Shown here: piece after piece, positions 9,267 to 51,877 of the stretch
Layout: each line of letters begins with the position of its first letter
How positions within the stretch are numbered: the first letter of the stretch is position 1
Sequence record: OR167180
Direction: 5' to 3' (one strand)
DNA length: 64,000 nucleotides
DNA from: Escherichia phage MIZ4
Program-made: the position numbers and the translations under genes
The notes under the pieces: generated by a model
Database searches by the model: none
Told to the model about the DNA's origin: nothing
What the model saw: only the letters and a program-made list of their open reading frames with translations

Positions 9267-9299
9267 CTTTAGGTTAACAACAAACAAGGTTTAAAGAAC

Positions 9300-14249: not shown

Positions 14250-14525
14250 TCAGGACATTGCCCGTTTGAATGCGTCCATTATAACAGTGTTATTTGGCTT
14301 GTCAACACGTTTTTGAACTTTATTTTTAAATTTTTTGTTGATGTGGTGTTTACGATAAACAACCTTTTCACGGTTGGCGTAAGCCTCTCGTGCATCTTTT
14401 ACCATCAACCATGCCTTAGCCGCATCTTGTCCGCTGATCCCGCCAATCTTCTTAGCAATATCAACAAAATTAAGACCGTGGTCTTCGCGTAGCATGTAAA
14501 CCATTAACGCTGTTTTCTTGTCCAT
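14250..14525 (-). CDS. Hypothetical protein (91 aa), possible helix-turn-helix
   Basis: Start taken at MDKKTAL, where the ATG overlaps the stop of the upstream gene; track ORF extends further in an overlapping frame. Confidence 0.5.
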   Translation of the reverse strand: MDKKTALMVYMLREDHGLNFVDIAKKIGGISGQDAAKAWLMVKDAREAYANREKVVYRKHHINKKFKNKVQKRVDKPNNTVIMDAFKRAMS

Positions 14526-14722: not shown

Positions 14723-14883
14723 ACTTCACCTCATACATTCATAAACACAACAACGAATAGGACAGTAACAGTTATTAAAGCCATTTTCAACCCCATATTC
14801 ATAATATTTTCTTCGCCTCACTATGACAGTAGCATGTCGATGCGTGCCATTATAGGCATCTAAATCGCTCTGTCAAGCACTAA

Positions 14884-27481: not shown

Positions 27482-28302
27482 TTAGTCACCTCACCGAAAA
27501 TTGTAAATTGTCTACGATTCTCATCGCCGAAAGATTCTACTACGTCGTTTACCTTGACGCAAGTCCCGCGCGGTAAAATTACTTCACATTCGCAAGGGTT
27601 CCATGCAATTGACCCAACAACAAAACCTTTATGATCTTTTACGTCAATTACCCATGATACATTACAAGAATGTTGCATCTTTCCGGTCATTGATTCATAT
27701 CGATTCTCACAATAAAGGCTAGTGCTGTTTGATAGCCATCCTCCAAAGATGATTGGTGTCATGCTGGTTGACACAAAGTTTTTAAAGGTAAATTCCTTAT
27801 CTTCAATAATACGCTCTATTGTCTGAATGTCAAGATGTTGACCGCGATAAAGAGTACCGTTTAACTTTTCGGTTTTATCCATGACACAATCCATCAAATC
27901 AACAATCTCTGATATCTCATCGGTCATGTCTTCTTCCCCTAAGAGAGCACCATTTACCCATTCGTATTGTTCAGACACATAATCACAGATTGCATTATAT
28001 TCTGCTGGGGGTATGTTGTTATGTTTGTAATGTTTGAATACATTATCTCCAAAGTCTTCGGAGTGTACTTCATACATCACATTAATGATTTTCTTGACAA
28101 ATCCATAATCTTGTGTCTCGCGCTCAAGGAAGCGGATAACCTTCACATAATCATCAAAGTTAATCTGATCGCTGATCATCTCAGTGATCATGTAACCATT
28201 AATCCCCTCAATGTCATATGTTTCAATATAATTGTCCATACGTTCCATCATTGATTCGCGTGATTCTTCCGAAAGACGAAAATCCTGTAATTTCTTGAAC
28301 AT
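27478..28302 (-). CDS. ADP-ribosyltransferase, short Alt paralog (274 aa)
   Basis: R-S-E triad motifs LYRG, FVSTS, CECEVILPRG; alignable to the C-terminal domain of the adjacent Alt. Confidence 0.75.
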   Translation of the reverse strand: MFKKLQDFRLSEESRESMMERMDNYIETYDIEGINGYMITEMISDQINFDDYVKVIRFLERETQDYGFVKKIINVMYEVHSEDFGDNVFKHYKHNNIPPAEYNAICDYVSEQYEWVNGALLGEEDMTDEISEIVDLMDCVMDKTEKLNGTLYRGQHLDIQTIERIIEDKEFTFKNFVSTSMTPIIFGGWLSNSTSLYCENRYESMTGKMQHSCNVSWVIDVKDHKGFVVGSIAWNPCECEVILPRGTCVKVNDVVESFGDENRRQFTIFGEVTK

Positions 28303-28380
28303 TTTAAACCTCCCATATAACAGAAAACGGGGCTAGTATAAAACTAGTCCCCGTTTGAGTCAACCATTATTTCTTAAAAA

Positions 28381-30432
28381 TTACATTTTAAATTTATCTG
28401 GCATTGCGTCTACAGATACCAGATCAGCGATAAGCTGACGTAGAGTTGCCTTATCTGCTTTCTTACGTTCGGTTTTAGCTTCGCTAATGAAGCTGGAGAA
28501 AGACAGGTCAGAAGCAGGTTTAACAACACCCTCACGGATGAATGCATCACCGTCCGCGATCATTTCGCCAGATTCTTGTAATGCTGCCAGTTCATTTTTG
28601 TTCATAATATGTGCCTCAATGTAATAAGTTTCTTGTGAATCTGTCGATGCCGTAGCACGAGTTACCGTATCAAAGGATAACACAACACCGCGAGGAAGTA
28701 AAATCTCGCATTCTTTGTAAGCAAATGCTTTGTTACCTACTGGCAAGACAGGGATGTTTTCCGCGCCAGCAATGGAGAAAGCAACATTAGCGCCACCTTC
28801 ACCGCGAGAGCCAGCCATAGAATCAACACCAGCAACGGCACTAGCCACGTTTGCATTCCAGCCGCCAAAAATGTTAGGTGCAAGGGAAGTGCTCACATAG
28901 TTTTTAAAGTAAAACGCTTTTTGCTTACGTGCAGTTTCCCACATTTGCGACCGGAAGTCCATACCACGATACAGAATAGTACCCGGATCAAGTTTAACGC
29001 CATAGTTGGAGAAGGCATTATCCAGTGCATCGCACATCTTGACCAATTCTTCTGGATCTGAGATTCCTTCAAACTCTTCCAGCTTACGGTCGGTTAGGAA
29101 GTTGTTCATATTGATGTATGCTGCATCGGCATATTCGCTCAACACAAAACCTTCCGCGCCTGGCAGATCAAGATCAATATCTGCCATCATTTCACCCATG
29201 TTGCTAGCAATTGCTTCAAACATACCGGACGCAACATTACGAAGGGCATCGGTTTTAATCTGGGTGATATGACTACGCAGCATTTCAGCTTTTACATCTG
29301 CTGGCATAGACTGGTCTACTCGATCCATTGCCAGGGCGGTGATCTTGTTTTCGAATACTTCCTCGCTCATGATTTCTTTTAAGCGTTTGATTGATGCTGC
29401 GATAACTTCCGCAGACAACGGATCATATTGATCCTGAACTTTTACCAGTTCGCTTACTGCGTATTTTGCATCTGCTTCGCTTTCAAAAATAGTACGCATG
29501 AAACCATAGCGAGTGATAATATCACTTGTCCAGTCATTCAGAGAACGGGCGGTTGAACGTTCTAAGGCTTGACGGTCAATCAGAGTATTAAACTGTTTCT
29601 TAGGTTCGGCTTCGGTGATATCTTCTTCCGGTTTAAGATTAATTTTTTCTGGATGATTCACGTAGTCGCTGTTATAGGTCGCTTGAGTTTTCAGCATTTC
29701 TTCTTTAGTCAAACGAGATTTAGCCGCTACGCGTTGTTCTGCTTCCGCGTTTCGTTCTTCTTCTGACACAAGACTAGCCGCATATGCCTCATCTTTAGTC
29801 AGAGATTCACCCGTAGCCTTAGATACCCAGCGATCACCTAAATCACTTTCTACTTTGGTGAACAAGGATTCATCAAGTTTAATCCCTTTAATCTTATCAA
29901 TCGCCATCCCGCGACGTTTGACAACAACTAAAGCGATCTTTTTGCTGGTCATTACTTCCTGCTGGAATACTTCAAACTTCGGTGTACGACGCACCAAACG
30001 CTCTATAACGCGCTTAACCAGTTCGGTCTTACCTTTCATGCGGGATACGTTAAAACGGAACATAACAGCGTCTAATTGCGCTTTACGGGCTGTTTCCATA
30101 ACCACATCAAACGCACTTGCCATAACTGCAATCGGGTTATCGCCTAGACCATTTTTAAGTTGTACAATACGACCGCTTTTGTTCATTTCGCACAGTACAA
30201 CATGTGCGGTTTTGTCACCCATACGAATGATTTTAGGTGTTTTGTTGGTGAAGTTACAAAGACGGACAATCACATCTTTATCGCGTGTCTGTACTGCAAA
30301 AAGCTGTTTAGGATTCTGCTTAGGCTTTAAGCACTGTACCGGAGCAATACTGCCAAAGTTTTCTTCCTCTTCCGTCAACAGCCATTTCTCGAAAGATTCA
30401 ATCATTAGATCGTCGATTTCTAAGTTAAACAT
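28381..30432 (-). CDS. alt: Alt ADP-ribosyltransferase (683 aa)
   Basis: Size and position as T4 Alt (682 aa); motifs ILYRG, YVSTS, ECEILLPRG. Confidence 0.9.
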   Translation of the reverse strand: MFNLEIDDLMIESFEKWLLTEEEENFGSIAPVQCLKPKQNPKQLFAVQTRDKDVIVRLCNFTNKTPKIIRMGDKTAHVVLCEMNKSGRIVQLKNGLGDNPIAVMASAFDVVMETARKAQLDAVMFRFNVSRMKGKTELVKRVIERLVRRTPKFEVFQQEVMTSKKIALVVVKRRGMAIDKIKGIKLDESLFTKVESDLGDRWVSKATGESLTKDEAYAASLVSEEERNAEAEQRVAAKSRLTKEEMLKTQATYNSDYVNHPEKINLKPEEDITEAEPKKQFNTLIDRQALERSTARSLNDWTSDIITRYGFMRTIFESEADAKYAVSELVKVQDQYDPLSAEVIAASIKRLKEIMSEEVFENKITALAMDRVDQSMPADVKAEMLRSHITQIKTDALRNVASGMFEAIASNMGEMMADIDLDLPGAEGFVLSEYADAAYINMNNFLTDRKLEEFEGISDPEELVKMCDALDNAFSNYGVKLDPGTILYRGMDFRSQMWETARKQKAFYFKNYVSTSLAPNIFGGWNANVASAVAGVDSMAGSRGEGGANVAFSIAGAENIPVLPVGNKAFAYKECEILLPRGVVLSFDTVTRATASTDSQETYYIEAHIMNKNELAALQESGEMIADGDAFIREGVVKPASDLSFSSFISEAKTERKKADKATLRQLIADLVSVDAMPDKFKM

Positions 30433-30473
30433 TTTATATCCTCTAGTTGATAACCTATAAACCTATATTTATG

Positions 30474-30499
30474 AAAAAGGGGCTTAACGCCCCCTTTTA
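30474..30499. terminator. Hairpin terminator between the small-gene array and alt
   Basis: AAAAAGGGG-CTTAACG-CCCCTTTT. Confidence 0.5.
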
Positions 30500-30712
30500 T
30501 TATAATGCACCATCGAGCAATTGCTCTAAGGTGTATCCTGAATAGTCTTTTTCAATCAGGATATATTTTCCTACTCGTTTAATACAACCGCGCATTTCAA
30601 CGTATTCTGCGTAGTTGATGGTACGAGTTGTTCCATCTTCCAGTAATGCAGTACCGATTTCGTTAATGCGGTCATAAGTTACGTCGGTAATGATGATTTC
30701 GATGTTAGCCAT
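30500..30712 (-). CDS. Hypothetical small protein (70 aa)
   Basis: Start at MANIEII with AAGGAG RBS; track N-terminal extension is translated promoter. Confidence 0.6.
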   Translation of the reverse strand: MANIEIIITDVTYDRINEIGTALLEDGTTRTINYAEYVEMRGCIKRVGKYILIEKDYSGYTLEQLLDGAL

Positions 30713-30748
30713 TTGATACTCCTTAGTAGTTCGTTTCGGTATGTGTGC

Positions 30749-30777
30749 ATTATAGGGGATCACCGATCCCCTGTCAA
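30749..30777 (-). promoter_or_regulatory. Sigma70-type early promoter cassette
   Basis: Minus strand TTGACA-17 nt-TATAAT; spacer is the palindrome GGGGATC-GGT-GATCCCC; approx coordinates. Confidence 0.65.
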
Positions 30778-30791
30778 CAACTTTTTTAAAA

Positions 30792-31073
30792 TTATTCGTG
30801 ATTAGTTTCGATGTTGTGCATTTTGCACCAGTTCAGCCAATCGCCCAGATCCTGATAGTTAATGCTTTTATCTGCTGCCATCGTTTTTGTCTTGATACCC
30901 ATATGTGCGTTATGAGTAAGCATTTTTACAGTGAACTCGATTTTATCGCCTTTAGCTTTAACATCAACCAGTTTGGTCCACTGGCTACCAGCGCCGCGAA
31001 TGTTCATACCAACGATGTTTCCGATGTACGCTTCTTTGTTTTTCAGGATTTCGGTTGCTTTGATGAATTTCAT
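30792..31073 (-). CDS. Hypothetical small protein (93 aa)
   Basis: ATG preceded by the conserved leader GGAGAATCAAAA. Confidence 0.65.
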   Translation of the reverse strand: MKFIKATEILKNKEAYIGNIVGMNIRGAGSQWTKLVDVKAKGDKIEFTVKMLTHNAHMGIKTKTMAADKSINYQDLGDWLNWCKMHNIETNHE

Positions 31074-31106
31074 TTTTGATTCTCCAGTTCGTTTCGGTAT
31101 GTGTGT

Positions 31107-31135
31107 ATTATGCTATGTTCTTACTTTGGTGTCAA
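31107..31135 (-). promoter_or_regulatory. Sigma70-type early promoter cassette
   Basis: Minus strand TTGACA-17-CATAAT followed by the conserved ACACACATACCGAAACGA leader. Confidence 0.6.
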
Positions 31136-31143
31136 CAACTTTT

Positions 31144-31413
31144 TTAGATATTTTCAGAAATAAATTTTAAAACTTGACGTAAATGTTTCTCATCTTTGAT
31201 AGTCGCCGGAAGTTCTTCTTTTACTTCCTGTGCAAGATAGATATTTCCGTTCCAAGTGAAAGATCCGTCTTCGTTTACGCGATAGCTGAACATCCACTCG
31301 CAATCATTTTCGATTTCATATACACACAGAATGGTGTAATCTTCAAAGCTATTGATTTCAAGGTCGAAGCCGTGACGTTTTGCAAAGTTGGTAGTGGTTT
31401 TAGTCAGTGCCAT
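31144..31413 (-). CDS. Hypothetical small protein (89 aa)
   Basis: ATG start with RBS; own upstream promoter cassette. Confidence 0.65.
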   Translation of the reverse strand: MALTKTTTNFAKRHGFDLEINSFEDYTILCVYEIENDCEWMFSYRVNEDGSFTWNGNIYLAQEVKEELPATIKDEKHLRQVLKFISENI

Positions 31414-31453
31414 TGTTTGATTCTCCTAAGTGGTATCTCGTTTCGATGGGTGT

Positions 31454-31482
31454 ATTATGCTATACACAGGATCTGGTGTCAA
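31454..31482 (-). promoter_or_regulatory. Sigma70-type early promoter cassette
   Basis: TTGACA-17-CATAAT, conserved leader. Confidence 0.6.
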
Positions 31483-31534
31483 CAACTTTTTTAAAAAATA
31501 GGCAATAAAAAGCCGACACTATGGTCGGCACATT

Positions 31535-31789
31535 TTAAAAATTCTTGCTATATATGCAAGCCTCATAATCTAGAGGATGACCGCCAATCCTACCAGGCTT
31601 AATATTCCAACCGCATCGATATTTGCTGACCATGCTAACCGTTTCGGTTCTTAGAGCATTTCTTTGCAAATCATACCCCCTAAATTCTTGTCTATAAGGA
31701 CAGTCCGCTTTGCAAGTTGGCGGTTCTACGTCATTTAGCGGGTCAGAAGCAGTTGGCTTTATTATCAATTCTTTGTTTGCAATAATCAT
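31535..31789 (-). CDS. Hypothetical Cys-rich small protein (about 84 aa)
   Basis: Start uncertain (ATG at 31789 or 31819); overlaps the upstream gene in a different frame. Confidence 0.4.
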   Translation of the reverse strand: MIIANKELIIKPTASDPLNDVEPPTCKADCPYRQEFRGYDLQRNALRTETVSMVSKYRCGWNIKPGRIGGHPLDYEACIYSKNF

Positions 31790-31922
31790 AAGCACATCCC
31801 ATTGAAGGCAATTTAACATCTTCGCAATAAGTGTTGAATCCGTCAAATACAATCACTTCGTATTTGACTCCATCGGCGATAGCTTTTACTTTATACCATC
31901 CATGCTTGTATAAAATCTTCAT
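31743..31922 (-). CDS. Hypothetical Cys-rich small protein (59 aa)
   Basis: Start at MKILYK with GAGGGAAATAAAG RBS. Confidence 0.55.
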   Translation of the reverse strand: MKILYKHGWYKVKAIADGVKYEVIVFDGFNTYCEDVKLPSMGCAYDYCKQRIDNKANCF

Positions 31923-31955
31923 CTTTATTTCCCTCAATCTCGTTTCGATGGGTGT

Positions 31956-31984
31956 ATTATGCTATAGGCGTGATCTGGTGTCAA
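31956..31984 (-). promoter_or_regulatory. Sigma70-type early promoter cassette
   Basis: TTGACA-17-CATAAT, conserved leader. Confidence 0.6.
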
Positions 31985-32042
31985 TGCCTTTTTTTAAAAT
32001 TTTATGCAATAAAAAAGCCGACACTAAGGTCGGCTAATAAAA

Positions 32043-32351
32043 TCATTTAGACAAATAATCATTCTGTGCAATCCGGTCGGCGTATGCTGGTGTTATGTCA
32101 ATCGCCAGCACTTTAACGCGTGCTTTCTTGCGACCTGGGTTTTCTCGTAACCAGTGCTCATGACCGTGAACATTTTTATACTTTGATGCTGTTTCGAAAG
32201 TACGGATCGGACCTGGGTAATCAGCGTAAAGGATCTCTAGATCTTCGGTGATGTAAAAATATACATCGTAATTGCTGTTCTCTAGCTTAAGCAGAGACTT
32301 TCGGAACATTGGGAGATTTTCGCGGGTAAATTCAAAGATATTATCTTTCAT
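32043..32351 (-). CDS. HxHW-family small protein, member 1 (102 aa)
   Basis: Shares YFYITEDLEILYADY ... HGHEHW ... KVLAIDI with five paralogs. Confidence 0.7.
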   Translation of the reverse strand: MKDNIFEFTRENLPMFRKSLLKLENSNYDVYFYITEDLEILYADYPGPIRTFETASKYKNVHGHEHWLRENPGRKKARVKVLAIDITPAYADRIAQNDYLSK

Positions 32352-32380
32352 AGTATTATCCTCAATAGTTGGATGAAAAG

Positions 32381-32397
32381 GGGCGTTAACGCCCCCA
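32381..32397 (-). terminator. Hairpin (possible leaky terminator)
   Basis: GGGGCGTTAACGCCCC followed on the minus strand by TTTTC. Confidence 0.4.
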
Positions 32398-32401
32398 TAT
32401 A

Positions 32402-32689
32402 TTAAAACAGTCCTTCCTGTACACCGTAGTAGAGTTCGTCGCTGATAATTTCATTAATGCGACGGTGTGTATATTCCTGATTTGCGAAGTTGTCAGCAAG
32501 TTCTACTTTAGTTTCGCCGTCATGAGTCCATTTAGTGATAACTTTACCATCTGCAAATTTGAAGTTGAACTCTTTAGCTACTGCATCGCGTACCAGACGT
32601 GCAAACTTATTGTTGCGGATTGCATTGTCGGTTTCGTGTGCAGCGTGAGCAAATTTGTTAACTTTCAGAGTGATAGTGATGTATGCCAT
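32402..32689 (-). CDS. KEFN-family small protein, member A (95 aa)
   Basis: Paralog of 35712..36023 (LVRDAVAKEFNFK vs IREVRKALAKEFNTK). Confidence 0.65.
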   Translation of the reverse strand: MAYITITLKVNKFAHAAHETDNAIRNNKFARLVRDAVAKEFNFKFADGKVITKWTHDGETKVELADNFANQEYTHRRINEIISDELYYGVQEGLF

Positions 32690-32734
32690 AATTTGATTCT
32701 CCTAGTTAGAAAGTGTATCTCGTTTCGATGGGTG

Positions 32735-32763
32735 TATTATGCTATACACCCGATCCGTTGTCA
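32735..32763 (-). promoter_or_regulatory. Sigma70-type early promoter cassette
   Basis: TTGACA-17-CATAAT, conserved leader ACACCCATCGAAACGAGATACAC. Confidence 0.6.
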
Positions 32764-32770
32764 ACACTTT

Positions 32771-33049
32771 TTATAAAATAATTTTTTGATATTTTTCTAT
32801 GATGTTTGTGTAGGTCACATCAACCGCTAGCACCGTTGCTTCGAATCCACCGTTTAGCCAATGGCTATGATCATGATCGTGAAAGAAACCTAGACCAGTA
32901 CGAAGACCTTCTTTATATTCGGCGCGTACATTCAGTTTGTCGTCGATAAACAGATAAAACCATGAATTTTTACTAGGATTGATGATACAACCTTTCAGAT
33001 TAGGGAGAATATCACGACTAAGAATAAACTTATCACCTACTTTGAACAT
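32771..33049 (-). CDS. HxHW-family small protein, member 2 (92 aa)
   Basis: WFYLFIDDKLNV ... HDHDHSHW ... TVLAVDV; start at ATG 33049. Confidence 0.7.
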   Translation of the reverse strand: MFKVGDKFILSRDILPNLKGCIINPSKNSWFYLFIDDKLNVRAEYKEGLRTGLGFFHDHDHSHWLNGGFEATVLAVDVTYTNIIEKYQKIIL

Positions 33050-33053
33050 AATA

Positions 33054-33374
33054 TTAGTCCTCACTTATAAGGTCAAACCAATTGTTTTTAGCATAATGCT
33101 TAATGCGTGCTTGATCTGCTTCCGCTGGTGATAGATTCCATGCAACCACTACAACTTCTGACGCATCGTCATCAGTTTCTGATACCCAATGATTGTGATT
33201 CATACAGTTATTTGCTATCGAGTGAGCAAATGATTTCATCACTGGAGACGTATAATCATAGTAACGGATTTTCAGATTTTCATCAACATACAAGTAGATC
33301 GTATACGGCTTATATTCAGTAACCAGTAACAGACAGTTACGCAATTCTGGGAAAATCTTTTTAGTTAATTTCAT
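33054..33374 (-). CDS. HxHW-family small protein, member 3 (106 aa)
   Basis: YTIYLYVDENLKIRYYDY ... NHNHW ... VVVVAW; GGAGAA RBS. Confidence 0.65.
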   Translation of the reverse strand: MKLTKKIFPELRNCLLLVTEYKPYTIYLYVDENLKIRYYDYTSPVMKSFAHSIANNCMNHNHWVSETDDDASEVVVVAWNLSPAEADQARIKHYAKNNWFDLISED

Positions 33375-33576
33375 ATTCTAGTTCTCCGTAATACACGGTA
33401 ATCCATTTTTCTTCATACTTTGTATCTTTCCAACACACAATCCCGTTTACTGTGCAATCTTTGGAATTGACGAATGATTCATATTGTTCCGCATCTTCCA
33501 TCATTTCATGAGCGGTCTTTTCATCGAATATATCGCAGATCGCTTTATATGCTCGATAATCTTTAAATTTGCTCAT
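33361..33576 (-). CDS. MSKFKDY-family small protein, copy 2 (71 aa)
   Basis: Tandem paralog of 33579..33788 (MSKFKDYRAYKAI vs MSKFKDYKAYQQI). Confidence 0.6.
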   Translation of the reverse strand: MSKFKDYRAYKAICDIFDEKTAHEMMEDAEQYESFVNSKDCTVNGIVCWKDTKYEEKWITVYYGELEYEIN

Positions 33577-33578
33577 AA

Positions 33579-33788
33579 TTAACACCACTCAAGAGTTTTT
33601 GAAAACACATCTATCCATTGTTGAGTATATGCGGTTTCTTTCCATGATACAATACCAGTCGAATAATGGTTTTTGTTTCCAGAAAAGGACGGGCATTTTG
33701 ATGCATCTTCCATCATCTTTTCGGCGAACTCTGGTTCGTATACTCGCAAGATCTGTTGATATGCTTTGTAGTCTTTAAATTTGCTCAT
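33579..33788 (-). CDS. MSKFKDY-family small protein, copy 1 (69 aa)
   Basis: Tandem paralog of 33361..33576. Confidence 0.6.
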   Translation of the reverse strand: MSKFKDYKAYQQILRVYEPEFAEKMMEDASKCPSFSGNKNHYSTGIVSWKETAYTQQWIDVFSKTLEWC

Positions 33789-34053
33789 AATCGTTAACTA
33801 CCTTATCAGCTTCTTTTATTGTTTTTACATCAACTGCGATAATACGTAAAGGTTCGTCGAATGTCCACCAATGATCGTGAATATCAGCTTGTGATTTATC
33901 ACCAAAGGAATCACGAATATCATTTTTACATTTATAGCTAATGTGACCGTTATAGTCAACATAAAGGTAATTATCGAAAATCGGCGTTTTTAAGATCATA
34001 CCGAAAAATCTTTCTTTGTGTGTCTTATCCAGCGTTGCAGTAATTCGCATCAT
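33775..34053 (-). CDS. HxHW-family small protein, member 4 (92 aa)
   Basis: YLYVDYNGHISY ... IHDHWW ... RIIAVDV; AAGAGGA RBS. Confidence 0.7.
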   Translation of the reverse strand: MMRITATLDKTHKERFFGMILKTPIFDNYLYVDYNGHISYKCKNDIRDSFGDKSQADIHDHWWTFDEPLRIIAVDVKTIKEADKVVNDYEQI

Positions 34054-34065
34054 AATATATTCCTC

Positions 34066-34245
34066 TTAGAAAGGGATGGTCATTTCTTGAGCTTGTACAT
34101 TCTCGTTAGGATTAAACTTCATCCAACCGATATTGTCTACCAGCATATGCACATTTTTATCATATCCTACGTGAGTAGTCAACACTAAATGTGCTTTGCC
34201 TTCAACGATGATTTCCATGTACTTCTGAACTTCGATAGATTTCAT
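34066..34245 (-). CDS. Hypothetical small protein (59 aa)
   Basis: ATG preceded by the GGAGAATCAAAA leader; translated by eye (MKSIEVQKYMEIIVEGKAHL...). Confidence 0.5.
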   Translation of the reverse strand: MKSIEVQKYMEIIVEGKAHLVLTTHVGYDKNVHMLVDNIGWMKFNPNENVQAQEMTIPF

Positions 34246-34277
34246 TTTGATTCTCCGTTTGTTGTCTTGGTGGGAGT

Positions 34278-34306
34278 ATCTTACTACTCCCTTTAATCAT
34301 TGTCAA
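34278..34306 (-). promoter_or_regulatory. Early promoter cassette with hairpin over the -10
   Basis: TTGACA-17-TAAGAT; hairpin GGGAGTA-GTAAGA-TACTCCC encloses the -10 hexamer. Confidence 0.55.
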
Positions 34307-34309
34307 CGA

Positions 34310-34477
34310 TTATTTGTTAATTTCTGGTGCGTTGCTAGGATAGTAACCTTCTTTAACACCCAGATATTTTGCAACCATTCCGGTGATCTTCTGTGCTACT
34401 ACGATATCGAATTTCAGGTAGTCTTCACCGTGGTTTGCTACAATGTATGCTTCGCATTCTGCTTTAGTCTGGAACAT
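34310..34477 (-). CDS. Hypothetical small protein (55 aa)
   Basis: Start at MFQTKAECEAYIV; the track N-terminus MLTGDHRSPILHTY is the translated promoter. Confidence 0.55.
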   Translation of the reverse strand: MFQTKAECEAYIVANHGEDYLKFDIVVAQKITGMVAKYLGVKEGYYPSNAPEINK

Positions 34478-34511
34478 TTTTGATTCTCCTATATCTCGTT
34501 GGTATGTGTGT

Positions 34512-34540
34512 AGTATAGGGGATCGGTGATCCCCTGTCAA
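34512..34540 (-). promoter_or_regulatory. Sigma70-type early promoter cassette
   Basis: TTGACA-GGGGATCACCGATCCCC-TATACT. Confidence 0.6.
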
Positions 34541-34548
34541 CAACTTTT

Positions 34549-34857
34549 TTATTCTTCATCTTCATTTTTATCTTTATATGCGTACTTCATAAATTTGTCT
34601 GCTACTTTGTCCGCGTTTTCAGGTTCTACGTCTGACGCTAGGACAACAGCTAGTTCGGTTTTGTCGTTTCCATCATACCAATGATTATGAGTGTCGTTTT
34701 CTTCGATATAAAACGAATCATTTGGAGTTGTGCGACAATATACGTCTAAATTCCCATCGATATAAAAGATCCAATCCGAATACAAAATGATTGCTTTAGC
34801 CAGATTTTTATTGTCTCTTACAAAAGGTTCCGCGACAAATAGCTTAGTTTGTTCCAT
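34549..34857 (-). CDS. HxHW-family small protein, member 5 (102 aa)
   Basis: WIFYIDGNLDVY ... THNHW ... LAVVLASDV; GAGGA RBS. Confidence 0.7.
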   Translation of the reverse strand: MEQTKLFVAEPFVRDNKNLAKAIILYSDWIFYIDGNLDVYCRTTPNDSFYIEENDTHNHWYDGNDKTELAVVLASDVEPENADKVADKFMKYAYKDKNEDEE

Positions 34858-34873
34858 AATATTTTCCTCAAAA

Positions 34874-35065
34874 TTATACAGCTTCGTAAACTTCCCAATG
34901 TTCAGCGCCAACACGCTTAACGAAAAGGTTTTCTTTGATGTTATTCATAAACGCCTGGATGGATTTAATGCGGTTGGAAGGTTTCCAGTCTTCGTTGGCA
35001 TTGCGGCGATACATAATAACATTACCAGTTCGCTTATATTCAGCAACCATTTTAAGACCACACAT
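34874..35065 (-). CDS. Hypothetical small protein (63 aa)
   Basis: ATG with GAGGATAA RBS. Confidence 0.5.
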   Translation of the reverse strand: MCGLKMVAEYKRTGNVIMYRRNANEDWKPSNRIKSIQAFMNNIKENLFVKRVGAEHWEVYEAV

Positions 35066-35122
35066 AATATTATCCTCAATTTGTGGGAGAGTATTACCCC
35101 TCCCAATGAATGTTATGTTATA

Positions 35123-35443
35123 TCACACAAAATGGCGTGTCAATGCTTCTTTTGCGGTTCCGCTAAGACTTTCGATCTCGCCTGGCATAACATCAACCGC
35201 CAGAACTTCTACAACATCCTCGGACCCTAACCAGTGAGTATGACCTTTGTAGAACTTGATAACCAGACTACCTTCCTCGTCCCATTTAACGCTATCGCTA
35301 GCCCACCACACATCACCGTCGATAAAGTTGATGTAAAGCACACTACGCCACATTGAATTAATTACTTTCAATACTGCGCCTTTCATCTCTTCCACGGTAT
35401 GGTCTTCCATTTTGAAGACCTCACCTACCCGAACTTTTGCCAT
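35123..35443 (-). CDS. HxHW-family small protein, member 6 (106 aa)
   Basis: VLYINFIDGDVWW ... GHTHW ... VLAVDV; GAGAGGTGA RBS. Confidence 0.7.
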   Translation of the reverse strand: MAKVRVGEVFKMEDHTVEEMKGAVLKVINSMWRSVLYINFIDGDVWWASDSVKWDEEGSLVIKFYKGHTHWLGSEDVVEVLAVDVMPGEIESLSGTAKEALTRHFV

Positions 35444-35460
35444 TTAGTCACCTCTCTTTA

Positions 35461-35640
35461 TTACATAACAATCACGCCAGCCGTTGAAAGTTGATGTTTC
35501 AACTGAGCATTTTCTGCTACCGTCAAATCAATGATTTCTTGTGACGCTGCAATCATATATCCATTGGTGATATTGTTTTGCATCAGTTCAATGGTTTCTT
35601 CGTTGTAGCGGATTTTAGCGATGATTTCGTTGAAGTTCAT
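35461..35640 (-). CDS. Hypothetical small protein (59 aa)
   Basis: Start at MNFNEIIAK; track N-terminus is the translated promoter. Confidence 0.55.
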   Translation of the reverse strand: MNFNEIIAKIRYNEETIELMQNNITNGYMIAASQEIIDLTVAENAQLKHQLSTAGVIVM

Positions 35641-35674
35641 GATTGATTCTCCTAGTTCGTTTCGGTATGTGTGT

Positions 35675-35703
35675 AGTATAGGGGATCGGTGATCCCCTGT
35701 CAA
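35675..35703 (-). promoter_or_regulatory. Sigma70-type early promoter cassette
   Basis: Identical to the cassette at 34512 (TTGACA-GGGGATCACCGATCCCC-TATACT). Confidence 0.6.
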
Positions 35704-35711
35704 CAACTTTT

Positions 35712-36023
35712 TTAAAGTTTTTCCATGATAACGGTCATAATTACATCTTCTGCGCGAGCGGTCAGATTATCAGCGTCAGGATGTGGGCGGTTGGTTGTTA
35801 CAGAGATAACACCGTTGCGCACTGGTTTGATATTGATATCAAGATGATCCGCGAAACGTTCGCCATTTACAGAATGAATTTTGGTGTTAAATTCTTTTGC
35901 CAGTGCCTTGCGAACTTCACGAATCAGGGTAGCGTTTTTCAGTTGGTTCTCCGCGCTCATGGTCTTCTGGGTGTTCATGGTTCCGTCGAAGTCAATCATT
36001 GGCAGCGTTACGATGTATTTCAT
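35712..36023 (-). CDS. KEFN-family small protein, member B (103 aa)
   Basis: Paralog of 32402..32689; conserved GGAGAATCAAAA leader. Confidence 0.65.
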   Translation of the reverse strand: MKYIVTLPMIDFDGTMNTQKTMSAENQLKNATLIREVRKALAKEFNTKIHSVNGERFADHLDINIKPVRNGVISVTTNRPHPDADNLTARAEDVIMTVIMEKL

Positions 36024-36068
36024 TTTTGATTCTCCGTTTAAGAAAGTGTGTTTCGTTTTGATGTGTGT

Positions 36069-36098
36069 ATTATAAGGGGATCACCGATCCCCTGTCAA
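36069..36098 (-). promoter_or_regulatory. Sigma70-type early promoter cassette
   Basis: TTGACA-GGGGATCGGTGATCCCC-T-TATAAT (18-nt spacer). Confidence 0.6.
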
Positions 36099-36110
36099 CA
36101 ACTTTTTGGA

Positions 36111-36587
36111 TTATTTTTCTTGATGCTCGCGCTCATACTTTTCGAAATAAAATTCTACTGGCTGATCGTGGATTGAAAGCAAGCCAAAGCGTTTAGCCGC
36201 TCGCAATCCCATATTGCGCTGAATGTACTTCTGGAAGTTCTCTCGTATACACTTACGCCAGTATTCTAAGCCCATACAGCTTTTATAAAGATTGCATTGT
36301 ACACACGCCGGATTCATGTTATCAAGTATATCATGTTCCGGTTTATGCATTCCTACAACCTTATACTTCCACGATCCATCATCATTACGGGCAATTCGTC
36401 CATTTTCATCATAGACTACCTTTGAGCGTCGCAATACTGGTTTGATGTGGTCTGCGTGCCAGCGATCCCCTAGTTCCTCGCCACAATAGGCACAACGTCC
36501 ACCGTATTTCATTTTCAGGATCTGGCGTTGCTCTTTCTTTGACAATTTTTTAGGTTTAGGGGCTTTCGCCCCTTCATTATCACACAT
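36111..36587 (-). CDS. HNH endonuclease (158 aa)
   Basis: CAYCG ... WHADHIKP ... NMNPACVQCN; overlaps the 3' end of the ligase gene by 8 nt. Confidence 0.75.
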   Translation of the reverse strand: MCDNEGAKAPKPKKLSKKEQRQILKMKYGGRCAYCGEELGDRWHADHIKPVLRRSKVVYDENGRIARNDDGSWKYKVVGMHKPEHDILDNMNPACVQCNLYKSCMGLEYWRKCIRENFQKYIQRNMGLRAAKRFGLLSIHDQPVEFYFEKYEREHQEK

Positions 36588-38076
36588 CGAATACCTCTTT
36601 TACTGTATTTGCTGTGGTCTTGTCGTAGCGAATACGTTTGATGATTGGGAGAAATAAAGAGAACTCCGGTTCATCTTCTTTACGTGATTTGCTGCGAATG
36701 TACCCGTTGCATGTCATCTCAATGACTTTTCCAATCAGGTTATGACGGTCAGCCCATAACATTTCTCGGTCGAGTTCATTTCGACGATCGAACGGAATTA
36801 CACGTTCGATACCATCATCACCTTTTTCGGTTGTGGTGTCGGTTAATCCCGATCCGGTATTAGTCATCATTCGTCCGCACGCACTACGGACAGTAAAACC
36901 GCCTACCTTATTAGGATCTTTACTATGCGGATATACATCAACAATTTCCGCGTCGAAGTCAATAACTTCTTTAAATTTAACCTGATCTTTACTACGGCGA
37001 TCTTCAAATACACCATGTAAATTTTTAAGGATAATACCTTCTAAGCCCATGTTGACATAACGATGATATACTTCGCGAGCTTCATCGATATTGTTAACTA
37101 CGGTATTTTCGATTATCTGAACACGAGGATCGTTAAGTTCTTCAACAATCTGTTTTAGTTCTTCGAATCGATCTTTATATTGCTTCGTTGCTTTCTCGTT
37201 TCCGTAATACACATCACGGTCGATAACATCCCAGACAGTGTAAACAATACATTGGGCTTCTTCTTTTGGAATAGTTCCTTTCAGTGATTTGTTGAGGATA
37301 CCATTTCCGGTCTGACGATCTGCAACAACGGATTCTTTCACCGCTTCCGCTACTGGCGTTAATGGCATTTCCTCTTCTTCAAATATCCATGACAGAGTAC
37401 CATCATAAACGCTCTCAACGAAGTTCTGCGCTGGTGTTTGCGAAAGGGTAGGCATATATACCAATTCGCCATCTAGAACAATTCCACGGCCTCGTAGACG
37501 CTCTAAAACCGCAAACAAATCATCAAGCCCTTGATAGGTATTACCTGAACGGGTATAGATTGATAATGTTTCCCCGTCAATATCAGCCATACCACGAGCG
37601 CCATCGCTTTTAAGTTGTGCATACGCCGGATACTTGATATTAGCAATAGTCTTATCAGAACATGACGATGCCAGGTGGCACGGTTGCTGGGGGATCAGTT
37701 TCTTCCATACCTTGTTTGCAGTGGTAGCGGAACAACCGCATTCCAGGTCACGATTCAGGACCATCATTGCAACTTTAGCATCATCCTCTGACAAGCAAGT
37801 CAGAGTATCGGTAACTAGCTGTAATGCTGCGTTGCCAGTTACTTGACGCGTGGCAAGTTTATTTTTAAAGACCTGTAATGCACCGGATAAAGACAATACA
37901 GACGAATAACGCGATGGTTTATCGTATTTCTTTACGCCAAACGTAACCTGTTTGCAATATGCCAGATAAAAGCATTCTTTCAGCGTTTCATTGCTCGCGG
38001 ATTCTTTCAGAATCTTTTCTTTCAGCGATGTTTTGTCTGTTGCTGCAAGCTGATTAATGATATTAAGAATTGACAT
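36580..38076 (-). CDS. 30: ATP-dependent DNA ligase (gp30)
   Basis: Matches T4 DNA ligase (active-site KSDGAR in YAQLKSDGARG, LDGELVY, GLEGIILK, RDLECG); start moved to ATG 38076. Confidence 0.93.
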   Translation of the reverse strand: MSILNIINQLAATDKTSLKEKILKESASNETLKECFYLAYCKQVTFGVKKYDKPSRYSSVLSLSGALQVFKNKLATRQVTGNAALQLVTDTLTCLSEDDAKVAMMVLNRDLECGCSATTANKVWKKLIPQQPCHLASSCSDKTIANIKYPAYAQLKSDGARGMADIDGETLSIYTRSGNTYQGLDDLFAVLERLRGRGIVLDGELVYMPTLSQTPAQNFVESVYDGTLSWIFEEEEMPLTPVAEAVKESVVADRQTGNGILNKSLKGTIPKEEAQCIVYTVWDVIDRDVYYGNEKATKQYKDRFEELKQIVEELNDPRVQIIENTVVNNIDEAREVYHRYVNMGLEGIILKNLHGVFEDRRSKDQVKFKEVIDFDAEIVDVYPHSKDPNKVGGFTVRSACGRMMTNTGSGLTDTTTEKGDDGIERVIPFDRRNELDREMLWADRHNLIGKVIEMTCNGYIRSKSRKEDEPEFSLFLPIIKRIRYDKTTANTVKEVFDV

Positions 38077-38542
38077 TTTCACCTCGTTTTGTTAAACGTT
38101 CACGAATATCATTGAGGATACTACAAAATTCCGATTCAGTCAATATAGTCTTTAACGGATCAGTTCCACCTATACTATGACGCAATTTCTTATTTCCGGT
38201 AGCGAGTAATGCTTTACAAAATTCTGGGTTATTCCGTGCCATCGTAACAAATGCCAGATGTACCAGTCTGTAATAATGCTCACTCATTCGATGAATCGGG
38301 CGACCCTGAAAATATAACATGTGATTCTCTATCTTTTCGGTCCTTCCGGTTCTTTTTGCTTTGCCACCGTGCATCAAAAAGATTTCTCTTTGCTTTTCTG
38401 GATTCTTGAATCTTAATCCCTGTAAAAATCCTTCTGTGCTGTTAATATCGCAACCAAATAGACGGAATGGTCTTTTATTGAAATTGCTCAATTCACCCGA
38501 TGGATAAGGTCCACCCGCATAGATATCAATTTCAGAAGTCAT
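38063..38542 (-). CDS. NADAR/YbiA-like (DUF1768) protein
   Basis: 159 aa; GELSNF...PF, KALLATGNKKLRH resemble E. coli YbiA (GDFSNF, ALLLATAPAKLVEH). Confidence 0.55.
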   Translation of the reverse strand: MTSEIDIYAGGPYPSGELSNFNKRPFRLFGCDINSTEGFLQGLRFKNPEKQREIFLMHGGKAKRTGRTEKIENHMLYFQGRPIHRMSEHYYRLVHLAFVTMARNNPEFCKALLATGNKKLRHSIGGTDPLKTILTESEFCSILNDIRERLTKRGENVNS

Positions 38543-39459: not shown

Positions 39460-39958
39460 TATCAATACCCTTCAAATCAGTCAATAATGCTTTTGGAATA
39501 CGCGTAACCGTAATGTCGGCTTTATCCAAAATATCAGCCCAATCACGCCCACCATTTCGATCATATGTGTCGCAGTAATATATGTGTTTAATACCACTGT
39601 TTGCAATTGCTTTAGCGCAATCTGGACACGGTGAAGCAGTACACCACATACTAGCGCCTTCAATCGATACACCGCTACGGGCAGCAAACAAAATAGCATT
39701 TAATTCAGCGTGGATCTCGTTTTTCTGTGACCATGCACTATGCTCTGGTCGTTTTTCTGGGATCATTTTGCCGTCATCATCCAGCCAACCGCTTTTATGT
39801 GCATGACAGCTACAGTTTTCTTGCCCTGCTGGAGTGCCGTTAAATCCAGTAGAAATGATTCGCCCGTCTTTTTCGATCAGTGCGCCTACCTTCCACGAAA
39901 CACATTTAGAGTTCTTTGCTATTAGATAGGCGATCTGCATGTAAGTTTGTGACAACAT
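39443..39958 (-). CDS. cd: dCMP deaminase
   Basis: Zinc-binding motifs CHAE-like HAELNAI and PCPDCAKAI; 171 aa. Confidence 0.9.
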   Translation of the reverse strand: MLSQTYMQIAYLIAKNSKCVSWKVGALIEKDGRIISTGFNGTPAGQENCSCHAHKSGWLDDDGKMIPEKRPEHSAWSQKNEIHAELNAILFAARSGVSIEGASMWCTASPCPDCAKAIANSGIKHIYYCDTYDRNGGRDWADILDKADITVTRIPKALLTDLKGIDNDRTN

Positions 39959-39979
39959 AATATAATCCTCACATATTAA

Positions 39980-43893: not shown

Positions 43894-43920
43894 CTTGATA
43901 CTCCTTAGTTGTTTTGGTAT

Positions 43921-43949
43921 GGGAGTATCTTACTACTCCCGTGATATGC
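43921..43949 (-). promoter_or_regulatory. Early promoter cassette with hairpin over the -10
   Basis: TTGACA-17-TAAGAT; GGGAGTAGTAAGATACTCCC hairpin. Confidence 0.55.
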
Positions 43950-43963
43950 TGTCAACTGCTTTT

Positions 43964-44113
43964 TTATGCAACCGCAAACATCAACATTTGAACATTCTTG
44001 GCTGTCTGGCTTTCAAAGTTCTGACATTCTTTGATAATGTCCTCTACTTTCTCGCCGGAGATCTCCGCGTAAGTTTCGATTGCCATTTTCAGTACCGCGT
44101 CAAAGTTGCTCAT
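43964..44113 (-). CDS. Hypothetical small protein (49 aa)
   Basis: Translated by eye (MSNFDAVLKMAIETYAEISGEKVEDIIKECQNF...). Confidence 0.4.
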   Translation of the reverse strand: MSNFDAVLKMAIETYAEISGEKVEDIIKECQNFESQTAKNVQMLMFAVA

Positions 44114-44151
44114 TTGATTCTCCTTAAAGTGTATTTCGTTTCGATGGGGGT

Positions 44152-44180
44152 ATATTACTACCCCCGTTTCATGCTGTCAA
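44152..44180 (-). promoter_or_regulatory. Early promoter cassette with hairpin over the -10
   Basis: TTGACA-17-TAATAT; GGGGGTAGTAATATACCCCC hairpin. Confidence 0.55.
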
Positions 44181-44399
44181 CTACTTTTTAATGACAAGTT
44201 CGAATTTTGCTACCTTGCGTCCGCGTTTATTGAAAGCAACCCACGGACGGTTTTCAATGTAGAACAATTCTTCACCAATAATGAATACTGGCTGATTGTA
44301 AAGGCGACCCATCAGGTCACGCTGGCGAATGGTAGTAGATTCGTATACTTCGCCCACTACAAAGTGTTTGTTGATAGAGTCGGTGCAAGTAAATTTCAT
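44181..44399 (-). CDS. Hypothetical small protein (72 aa)
   Basis: ATG start after the conserved leader. Confidence 0.55.
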   Translation of the reverse strand: MKFTCTDSINKHFVVGEVYESTTIRQRDLMGRLYNQPVFIIGEELFYIENRPWVAFNKRGRKVAKFELVIKK

Positions 44400-44432
44400 T
44401 TTGATTCTCCTTTGTTTCGTTTAGATGGGAGT

Positions 44433-44461
44433 ATCTTACTACCCCCGCTATTCAGTGTCAA
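44433..44461 (-). promoter_or_regulatory. Early promoter cassette with hairpin over the -10
   Basis: TTGACA-17-TAAGAT; GGGGGTAGTAAGATACTCCC hairpin. Confidence 0.55.
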
Positions 44462-44468
44462 CTACTTT

Positions 44469-44687
44469 TTACTTGTTGTATTCATTCCACCATTGAGTGA
44501 GCTTATCAATTATTTTTGTGTTTCTATCCAACTTATCCCACCGTTTTCGAGGGTTTATCAACCGGAATAGGTAAGGTGTACTTGTTAAGTGAACTCGGTC
44601 AATGTAGTGATTGATGTACTGCTTTTCAATTCTAATTTTCATCTTTTTACGATGAAAATATGCAATGACTTGTTCTTCTGTTTCCAT
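44469..44687 (-). CDS. Hypothetical small protein (72 aa)
   Basis: ATG start with GGAGGAA RBS. Confidence 0.55.
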   Translation of the reverse strand: METEEQVIAYFHRKKMKIRIEKQYINHYIDRVHLTSTPYLFRLINPRKRWDKLDRNTKIIDKLTQWWNEYNK

Positions 44688-44711
44688 ATGTTCCTCCGTT
44701 TCGATGTGCGT

Positions 44712-44740
44712 ATTATGCTATGGTAAGATCCTATTGTCAA
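44712..44740 (-). promoter_or_regulatory. Sigma70-type early promoter cassette
   Basis: TTGACA-17-CATAAT. Confidence 0.55.
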
Positions 44741-44787
44741 CACCCAATAACAAAAAAGTCGCCACTATGGGCGACTTTGAACAAACA

Positions 44788-46777: not shown

Positions 46778-46944
46778 TATCCGACAACCTCAAAACATTT
46801 ATCATCAGGAAGAATCGCCCATTCTACACCGTATTCATCCTCGACGTAGTAGCAAGTCCCATCATGTCGAGCATCATATTCATCACCAACAACAAAGCTA
46901 TCAGCTAGTTCAAAATCTACAGCAACACATTTTAATTTGGTCAT
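46777..46944 (-). CDS. Hypothetical small acidic protein (55 aa)
   Basis: Start at MTKLKCVAV with GTGAGGA RBS; preceded by a promoter cassette. Confidence 0.5.
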   Translation of the reverse strand: MTKLKCVAVDFELADSFVVGDEYDARHDGTCYYVEDEYGVEWAILPDDKCFEVVG

Positions 46945-46975
46945 AATAAAATCCTCACTTGTTTTTGATGGTTGT

Positions 46976-47004
46976 ATTATAGCGGGGATTTCTCCCCGCG
47001 TCAA
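46976..47004 (-). promoter_or_regulatory. Sigma70-type promoter with hairpin spacer
   Basis: TTGACG-CGGGGAGAAATCCCCGC-TATAAT; spacer hairpin is the same motif as at 4883 and 5430. Confidence 0.6.
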
Positions 47005-47012
47005 CACTTATT

Positions 47013-51488: not shown

Positions 51489-51818
51489 TCAAATCAGTTT
51501 GAAATAGTTTTCGTTTACATTTTCTTCTGTGATTGCTGTCTTAAATTCTTGACCGTTATCCGGTGTGATGAAATAACGGTCAGAATAATCACGAAAACGT
51601 TTTAAGTGAGATACCCCAACATTAACACCATTTTCCCAAAAACGAAAGGTAATCATTTTTGGTTCATATCGATAGTCGCTGGTTAACACAGTACCATCCC
51701 CGCGACGGGCTTCATAAACCGTAATACATTCACGGTTAGCGGCTTTAAGGCATTCTTCAATAGTTCCGCACGAGATAATACTTACTTTTTCATCTACGAT
51801 TTGTTCTACAGTCCACAT
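51489..51818 (-). CDS. Hypothetical protein (109 aa)
   Basis: Start at MWTVEQ with GAGAGGA RBS; the track extension is translated promoter and leader. Confidence 0.55.
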   Translation of the reverse strand: MWTVEQIVDEKVSIISCGTIEECLKAANRECITVYEARRGDGTVLTSDYRYEPKMITFRFWENGVNVGVSHLKRFRDYSDRYFITPDNGQEFKTAITEENVNENYFKLI

Positions 51819-51849
51819 AATATAATCCTCTCTTTGTTTCGATATGTGC

Positions 51850-51877
51850 ATTATACACTATTGCGTTACGCTGTCAA
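51850..51877 (-). promoter_or_regulatory. Sigma70-type early promoter cassette
   Basis: TTGACA-16-TATAAT followed by the CACATATCGAAACAAAGAGAGGA leader. Confidence 0.6.

Follow-up and report, generated by a model that had tools for sequence, protein, structure and literature searches.

The minus-strand array of small genes at 30710-36113 of Escherichia phage MIZ4 (OR167180, of which a stretch of 64,000 nucleotides, hereafter the window, was analysed) lies between the DNA ligase/HNH genes (36111-38082, minus strand) and alt (28381-30432, minus strand), and is very probably the HPR3 set of promoter-early stem-loop (PeSL) cassettes of an RB49-type T4-like phage, with the insulation and in-register recombination mechanism proposed for such cassettes. 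The element is already known from the same locus and the same phage group, having been described in RB49 and phi1 as a sigma70 promoter combined with a polyG/polyC stem-loop (Arbiol et al., 2010; PMC2839356) and extended to other T4-likes (Comeau et al., 2014; PMC4122927). The array is orthologous, gene by gene, to the RB49/phi1 ORF185-ORF212 block (HPR3) in which PeSLs were defined; what an initial annotation of the window had called PeSL-like are actual PeSLs. Window positions 30500-36400 are 100% identical, at the same coordinates, to MIZ5 (OR167181.1), the name used for this allele below, and a further 57 records, all Krischvirus (RB49-like), match the interval at 90-99% identity, RB49 and phi1 at 93-96%.

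Few concrete mechanisms have been put forward for accessory-gene swapping in the hyperplastic regions of T4-type phages; PeSLs are among them, and the window is a further genome in which they occur. The comparison of 16 genomes (the window and 15 relatives, aligned over the ligase-to-alt interval), as against the original two, provides independent quantitative support that confirms the PeSL model and leaves the picture unchanged. Demonstrated here are the architecture and orthology of the cassettes, gene-content breakpoints that fall in register, a chimeric junction and the upkeep of the hairpins despite turnover of their sequence. Modest additions to the published description are the breakpoint statistics across the 16 genomes, the chimeric cassette of MIZ5, the hypervariability of the promoter spacers with loop flips and core exchange, and the resemblance of the leader to RegB sites, the flipping hypervariable spacers and the RegB resemblance being small, testable extensions.

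Cassette architecture and its precedents

A consensus scan found eight minus-strand sigma70 sites with 11-12 of 12 hexamer matches, with -35 boxes starting at 36098, 35703, 34540, 32764, 31984, 31482, 31135 and 30777, and two weaker sites with 10 of 12 matches at 35143 and 34306 (strong cassettes are named c, and weaker ones w, followed by the start of the -35). The "at least nine" near-consensus promoters of the initial annotation are therefore reached only by adding the two weaker sites to the eight strong ones. Of the -10 boxes in its formula of TTGACA-17-TATAAT/CATAAT, TATAAT is found in two and CATAAT in four of the strong sites; two others carry TATACT, and the spacer between the -35 and -10 of c36098 is 18 nt. 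The pattern TTGACA-N18-ATAMT occurs nine times in the 64 kb, compared with 0.17 expected, and seven of the nine are within the array. Promoters are annotated at equivalent sites in the GEC-3S record, and the early-promoter consensus of RB49 agrees with 5'-end mapping of early transcripts, according to a statement in Nolan et al. (2006; PMC1524935).

Every cassette leads from an upstream stop codon to a small open reading frame (ORF) of 55-103 amino acids, as had been noted for the promoters from the start. In the seven strong cassettes without an upstream terminator, 6-13 nt separate this stop codon from the -35; a terminator hairpin intervenes between the two in c31984 and c31482, and the -35 of w35143 lies inside o208. 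That the cassettes constitute a repeat family is confirmed by a ten-cassette alignment (A1), by a repeat finder (families D1-D4) and by eight nhmmer hits at E<=4e-15, the best being c31482 (E=3.6e-21). The strong cassettes have in common the A-tract (AAAAAAG is conserved upstream of the -35 in A1), GTTGTTGACA and a leader, ACAC(A/C)CAT..GAAACGA. This leader, which the initial annotation had assigned to all cassettes, is real (A1, D1-D4), but the motif GGAGAATCAA, with the ATG 1-4 nt later, is found in only seven of ten; the Shine-Dalgarno sequences of c31984 and c30777 are variants, and w35143 lacks the motif and has GAGGATAATATTATG. In the window as a whole, GGAGAATCAA occurs nine times (0.18 expected), invariably on the minus strand and 1-4 nt 5' of a cassette start codon.

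A cassette is ~75-125 bp long, links the stop codon of a small gene with the start codon of the gene that follows, and consists of an A-tract (UP-like), a near-consensus sigma70 promoter, usually a hairpin of a G-run and a C-run, a conserved 5' leader and a GGAG Shine-Dalgarno sequence. In the proposed mechanism, unmodified host RNA polymerase would use the promoter as soon as infection has begun, and a spacer hairpin, or one over the -10, would be transcribed only by polymerases from upstream promoters; that of w35143, located 3' of the -10, would also be part of its own transcript. The hairpins would attenuate or terminate this read-through, or stabilise upstream 3' ends, leaving each small gene or short operon transcriptionally insulated. 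Because near-identical direct repeats of ~60-90 nt recur every 0.25-1.8 kb, genes could be exchanged, deleted, duplicated or inserted in register, and efficient homologous recombination of the phage would also copy promoter cores between cassettes.

The likeness to the RB49/phi1 PeSLs comprises genus, locus (ORF185-212, HPR3), architecture (stop codon-AT tract-promoter-stem-loop-Shine-Dalgarno-ATG) and indels of ORFans. The -35/spacer/-10 of c36098 is identical to that of the phi1 cassette upstream of ORF210 (211/210), and that of c34540 to phi1 PeSL206/205. Unlike RB49 and phi1, MIZ5 has fewer cassettes, since 2.7 kb (ORF186-192) has been lost, and its c31135 is without a stem-loop. Arbiol et al. 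counted ~52 PeSLs in each genome, the majority of them 5' of ORFans in hyperplastic regions, and their test cases, namely PeSL193/192, PeSL206/205, PeSL211/210 and, with its "eight PeSLs in an ~5-kb area", the ORF192 region, all belong to the present locus (PMC2839356). For cloned PeSL206/205 the lacZ activity was about 13,000 Miller units, and the stem-loop of PeSL211/210 cut lacZ about as much as rrnB T1 did; whether these constructs came from RB49 or phi1 is unstated in the paper (PMC2839356), and the identity to c34540 and c36098 holds for the phi1 alleles. By analogy with these constructs, and with the recombination mini-circles obtained by inverse PCR in RB49/phi1 (PMC2839356), comparable promoter strength, terminator activity and mini-circles would be expected in MIZ5.

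Compared with T4 early promoters and the internal-protein (IP) loci of T-even phages, the array is similar in having strong promoters, A-rich UP-like sequences and repeated linkers around small variable genes, and the promoter/stem-loop linkers of the IP loci have been proposed to confine shuffling to those loci (PMC2839356). In contrast to the GTTTAC -35 and the AT-rich, weaker hairpins of T4, the RB49-type elements have TTGACA and G4/C4 stems, and the two are regarded by Arbiol et al. as analogs, not homologs (PMC2839356). Integron cassettes and lambdoid morons, a comparison also drawn in that paper, resemble PeSLs in that small accessory genes move as units with a promoter supplied. Unlike integrons, however, PeSLs have no integrase or attC-type site and are exchanged by homology within the regulatory repeat, and unlike morons, it is the regulatory sequence itself that is the vehicle of mobility.

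Gene-content breakpoints and hairpin turnover

The initial annotation had proposed asking whether cassette boundaries coincide with gene-content breakpoints in related genomes, and across the 16 genomes they do. The alignment contains 12 distinct events (indels or duplications) of 40 bp or more, and 18 of their 24 endpoints are within cassettes (taken as -30 to +85 of the cassette -35), which occupy 15.8% of the alignment columns (binomial P=2e-10). Under a stricter null, in which breakpoints are allowed at gene junctions only (15 of 31 junctions have a cassette), the probability is 0.007; both values assume independent events and use no tree, and several of the events are of common ancestry. 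In eight of the 12 events both ends are in cassettes, and seven of these eight join different cassette copies in register with the -35, with offset pairs of -11/-10, -15/-13, -8/-15, -3/-3, 35/35, 36/36 and -20/-21. Such registration is the hallmark of homologous exchange between repeats. The remaining event of the eight is a 40-nt duplication inside one cassette of G2248.

A chimeric cassette is found at the alt end of the array. MIZ5 alone is without alignment columns 7423-9901, corresponding to RB49 ORF191-187, a block that includes the ORF189 DNA methyltransferase and the ORF187 DUF262 protein, and it is also without ORF186 and ORF192, both of which are variable among the relatives; a further deletion at this junction spans columns 9943-10191. 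Relative to the 15 aligned genomes the MIZ5-specific loss amounts to ~2.7 kb (about 7417-10523 in RB49, L002). The cassette at this junction, c30777 (30710..30794, minus strand, with its palindrome at 30771-30755 and the o185 ATG at 30712), is a three-way chimera in the alignment: the AT-rich part carries on from the stop codon of o193, which is also the arrangement in PeSL 193/191, the core TTGTTGACAGGGGATCGGTGATCCCCTATAATGCACACAT has the sequence of PeSL187/186 in GEC-3S, and the leader ACCGAAACGAACTACTAAGGAGTATCAAATG has that of PeSL 186/185. A 351-nt query across the o193/o185 junction is contiguous in one of 58 records, that of MIZ5 only. c30777 is what a lineage-specific deletion of ~2.7 kb between cassettes left behind.

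Smaller rearrangements are also seen within single cassettes. In vB_Eco_SAP (L006, about 9995-10140) a whole cassette is tandemly duplicated over 79 bp, and the 40-nt duplication of G2248 (L011, about 2640-2766) is internal, comprising the hairpin, the -10 and the start of the leader; both resemble the outcome of slippage, or of unequal exchange, acting locally within cassettes.

The hairpins themselves are maintained while their sequences change. The palindrome GGGGATC-N3-GATCCCC fills the spacer in exactly four cassettes (c36098, c35703, c34540 and c30777), which bears out the initial statement that several spacers are wholly palindromic, and as RNA it folds, at -13.8 to -14.2 kcal/mol, into a stem of 8 bp closed by a loop of 3 nt. 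The last A of TTGACA contributes to this stem, its partner being the T that opens the -10 in three of these cassettes and the extra, 18th spacer base (T) in c36098. Hairpins of -13.8 to -15.7 kcal/mol are present in six cassettes, and of the stem-loops in the array, the spacers hold four, two cover the -10, one is 3' of the -10, and two are terminators in the upstream AT-rich tract; those of c32764, w34306 and w35143 and the terminators before c31984 and c31482 were absent from the initial annotation. The stem-loops of RB49 and phi1 likewise occupy one of five positions (the spacer, the -35 box, the -10 box, 5' of the -35 or 3' of the -10), the spacer and the -10 box being the most frequent (PMC2839356). 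The hairpins at 32035-32016 and 31529-31512 are of the intrinsic-terminator type (a GC-rich hairpin followed by a U-tract).

Seven spacer-hairpin positions in the 16 genomes provided 89 instances with 34 distinct 38-nt cores, which were folded one by one; MAFFT columns misregistered rows of unequal loop length, so a column-wise covariation count was dropped. All 89 instances fold, and 31 of the 34 alleles do so at -10 kcal/mol or better. The stems are of two types, GGGGATC/GATCCCC and GGGGAG/CTCCCC, the loops have eight different sequences and measure 3-6 nt, and for several A->G variants G.U is the only pairing left on the sense strand. The loop alleles GGT and ACC, each the exact reverse complement of the other, alternate at orthologous positions. 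The same 38-nt core is also encountered at different cassette positions among genomes; one core occupies 187/186 in MIZ5 and GEC-3S, but 206/205 in RB49 and MIZ6. Mean pairwise diversity of the spacer is 0.11-0.24 in seven of the eight strong cassettes, whereas the -35 hexamers have 0-0.02, the leaders 0-0.04, the region as a whole 0.04 and third codon positions 0.086 (the value of 0.37 for the c31984 spacer looks like an alignment artefact). This combination fits a hairpin kept by selection, with exchange between cassettes and hairpin-templated change renewing its sequence.

Evidence against the proposed mechanism and possible alternative roles of the hairpin

Besides the common ancestry of several breakpoint events, a number of observations weigh against the interpretation of the array as insulating, recombining PeSLs. 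Four of the 12 events have at least one end outside a cassette, and cassettes are thus not the sole route to gene-content change: one insertion, of an extra ORF, is at an ordinary gene junction, the loss of ORF189.1 took place between TGAAA microrepeats, UPWr_E1 lost ORF207 between two copies of a second start-region motif (GAGGAWWATAYTATG), and the left end of the ORF211 indel is outside any cassette. A promoter hairpin is lacking in c31135, c31482 and c31984, and c31135 is a plain promoter repeat, not a full PeSL. Judged as intrinsic terminators, the four spacer palindromes are wanting, as they are followed by UAUACUAC, UAUAAUGC or UUAUAAUAC with no U-tract and none was called terminator-like. 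The terminator activity suggested for the array is extrapolated from one published construct of an orthologous stem-loop.

The most substantial alternative concerns what drives the exchange. The hairpin could be the target of a dedicated nuclease or recombinase (endonuclease VII-type or HNH, acting on an extruded cruciform), such that cassettes are exchanged actively and not as a by-product of general homologous recombination, a possibility left open by Arbiol et al. (PMC2839356). Such targeting would agree with hairpin spacers that are 1.3-2.8 times more diverse than third codon positions beside -35 hexamers with a pi of 0-0.02 and a conserved leader, with the invariance of the one non-hairpin spacer (31135), with GGT/ACC loop alleles that are exact reverse complements at orthologous sites, and with cores that move between cassettes; in addition, an HNH endonuclease gene with PHROG endonuclease VII hits borders the array. 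The crossovers, however, are spread over the AT-rich part (-3 to -22) and the leader (+35, +36) and are not centred on the hairpin, and the loss of ORF195-196, one end of which is in c31984 and the other in c31482, joins cassettes without promoter hairpins. Loop flips and templated quasi-palindrome changes, moreover, can arise through template switching during replication alone, as in T4 rII mutagenesis. The published mini-circle junctions are between the -10 and the ATG, and T4-type recombination requires less than 50 bp of homology (PMC2839356). A dedicated nuclease or recombinase is accordingly considered improbable, and general homologous recombination, with crossovers over the AT-rich tract and leader, is the driver to which the positions of the crossovers point.

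Two further alternatives concern the palindrome as a regulatory site, and Arbiol et al. make no mention of operators, GATC or methylation, nor of inversion or gene conversion (PMC2839356). The initial annotation had suggested that the palindrome could be an operator, in which case a dimeric phage or host DNA-binding protein bound between the -35 and -10 would shut the early promoters off. A perfect 7+7 (8+8) dyad does sit exactly in the spacer of four strong promoters, and specific protein binding to GGGG...CCCC has been speculated upon, though for recombination and not repression (PMC2839356). The palindrome is nevertheless present in only four of ten cassettes and, among the 16 genomes, is replaced at orthologous positions by GGGGAG-loop-CTCCCC or GGGGAT-CACGT-ATCCCC; in other cassettes the hairpin covers or follows the -10, or else precedes the -35. 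Furthermore, A->G variants that give G.U on the sense strand break the symmetry of the DNA dyad, and Pfam and PHROG searches found no DNA-binding domain in the neighbouring small ORFs. Over the 89 instances the stem, the loop, the loop length (3-6 nt) and the position all vary and only the pairing is kept. With no single conserved dyad at a fixed position and with G.T-creating variants tolerated, a repressor operator was rejected as very unlikely.

Least credible of all is Dam/SeqA control, in which two spacer GATC sites would let the promoter tell injected methylated from hemimethylated replicated DNA: although a GATC lies 3-4 nt after the -35 in seven of eight strong cassettes (the palindromic ones carrying two, 7 nt apart) and that of PeSL 199/198 is kept in 15 of 16 genomes while the preceding 3 nt vary, the cassettes are homologous copies whose shared GATC is not independent evidence, and the idea was rejected because GATC is not enriched (363 observed versus 346 expected in the window; 5.2 per kb in the array versus 5.7 per kb elsewhere) and GATC-free GGGGAG...CTCCCC alleles substitute at the same positions. 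A search of Rfam gave no match at E<=1 within 28000-38500.

Leaders, individual cassettes and genes

The Shine-Dalgarno region of the cassettes resembles the RegB/S1 target of T4 early mRNAs, the consensus of which is GGAGRAYARAA (GGAGAAUAAAA in T4; Durand et al., 2006; PMC1702504). RB49 has a RegB homolog that is divergent from T4 RegB (PMC3014915). As in RegB/S1 sites, the sequence in question is the Shine-Dalgarno of early genes, and GGAGAAUCAAA matches the consensus at 10 of 11 positions; unlike them, it has C at position 8, where A is strongly preferred. The form GGAGAATCAAA (again 10/11, with C at position 8) is found in six array cassettes, a seventh, c35703, having GGAGAAUCAAU / GGAGAATCAAT, and c30777 has GGAGTATCAAA. 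RegB is not mentioned in the PeSL paper (PMC2839356). Putative cleavage of GGAGAAUCAAA by RegB may serve as an early shut-off. One may tentatively go further in two respects: the PeSL may be a complete early-only module (a burst, then mRNA inactivation by RegB/S1), and its spacer hairpin may be a hotspot of diversification, at which template-switch loop inversion and conversion from one cassette to another would reshuffle promoter cores at a pace above that of neutral drift; these extensions are a good deal less secure than the PeSL identification itself.

The second start motif, GAGGAWWATAYTATG, is present in eight copies (0.04 expected), all on the minus strand, at 32349-32363, 34051-34065, 34855-34869, 35063-35077, 39956-39970, 46942-46956, 51816-51830 and 14800-14814. 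Within the array it serves promoter-distal genes, which are not preceded by a strong cassette. It is also a recombination linker, because UPWr_E1 lost ORF207 by exchange between two of its copies.

Beginning at the ligase end, c36098 (PeSL 212/210; 36021..36113, minus strand, as are all cassettes) extends from the HNH stop codon to the o210 ATG, with the -35 at 36098-36093, the palindrome GGGGATCGGTGATCCCC at 36092-36076 (-14.2 kcal/mol as RNA), a TATAAT -10 and the leader end GGAGAATCAAAAATG. In c35703 (PeSL 210/209; 35638..35714) the -35 at 35703-35698 is followed by the palindrome GGGGATCACCGATCCCC at 35697-35681, a TATACT -10, the Shine-Dalgarno GGAGAATCAA and the o209 ATG at 35640. The weak cassette w35143 (PeSL 208/207; 35063..35149) has TTGACA-17-TAACAT in the 3' end of o208, a hairpin at ~35105-35084, 3' of the -10, and GAGGATAATATTATG at the start of o207; the minimum free energy of the whole 71-nt segment is -18.8 kcal/mol, and the cassette is conserved in 15 of 16 genomes. 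c34540 (PeSL 206/205; 34475..34551), which precedes o205, has its -35 at 34540-34535, its palindrome at 34534-34518, a TATACT -10 and GGAGAATCAAAAATG. The second weak cassette, w34306 (PeSL 205/204; 34243..34312; TTGACA-17-TAAGAT, GGAGAATCAAAATG), heads a run of six genes from o204 to o199 and is annotated as a promoter in GEC-3S; its hairpin, GGGAGTA/TACTCCC at 34291-34272, overlaps the -10 (-15.7 kcal/mol, z -5.0).

c32764 (PeSL 199/198; 32687..32773), upstream of o198, has its -35 at 32764-32759, a CATAAT -10 and GGAGAATCAAATTATG, and a hairpin, GGGTGTAT/ATACACCC, at 32751-32730 encloses the -10 (-14.0 kcal/mol). It shares with c36098 the leader insert ACACTTTCT (family D4). In c31984 (PeSL 197/196; 31920..32045) the promoter is accompanied by the upstream terminator at 32035-32016, and no stable promoter hairpin was found on folding. 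c31482 (PeSL 196/194; 31411..31537) consists of the terminator at 31529-31512, the -35 at 31482-31477, a CATAAT -10 and GGAGAATCAAACAATG, and leads to o194. Finally, c31135 (PeSL 194/193; 31071..31146), which leads to o193, has its -35 at 31135-31130, a non-palindromic spacer CCAAAGTAAGAACATAG that is invariant across 16/16 genomes, a CATAAT -10 and GGAGAATCAAAAATG; folding gave no stem-loop (-2.0 kcal/mol, z +0.17).

No gathering-score Pfam hit was obtained for the 19 small ORFs, o199 having a sub-threshold match to PROCT only, and their PHROG hits are all of "unknown function". Paralogs are frequent: o210 and o198 both belong to phrog_7474 and share the D4 leader insert, o202 and o201 are tandem paralogs (33361-33788, minus strand; 46% identical, phrog_8471, repeat family D5), and o197, o199, o200 and o206 belong to phrog_9345. 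Members of this last family, at 32043-32351, 32771-33049, 33054-33374 and 34549-34857 and more weakly at 35123-35443 and 33775-34053 (all minus strand), make up a third of the array and are proteins of ~92-106 amino acids with an H-x-H-W motif, a ...vlAvDv C-terminal segment and no Pfam hit. Since o205 is 91% identical to RB49 ORF191 and such paralogs exist, cassette-plus-gene units have undergone duplication as well as deletion. The ORF195 homolog (31535-31789, minus strand) overlaps o196 out of frame, is the only array ORF without a PHROG hit, and may not be a real gene. The HNH endonuclease gene bordering the array (36111-36587, minus strand; PF01844; PHROG: HNH, endonuclease VII) overlaps the end of the ligase gene and is 477 nt long here versus 474 nt in relatives with ORF211.

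Elsewhere in the window, divergent members of the cassette family are found on the minus strand at 43895-44744, 46963-47017, 51834-52747 and 14261-14319 (nhmmer E of 3e-9 to 0.02), with G/C hairpins of different sequence (GGGAGTATCTTACTACTCCC, GGGGGTATATTACTACCCCC and GCGGGGATTTCTCCCCGC). A terminator-like hairpin is repeated at 30471-30505, after o185 and just before alt, and at 32373-32407, after o198 (83% identical over 35 nt; types GGGGCGTTAACGCCCC and GGGGCTTAACGCCCC). The tetranucleotide GGCC is scarce in the window, with 23 occurrences versus 64.7 expected from trinucleotides (ratio 0.36), a depletion far beyond that of the other 4-nt palindromes tested.

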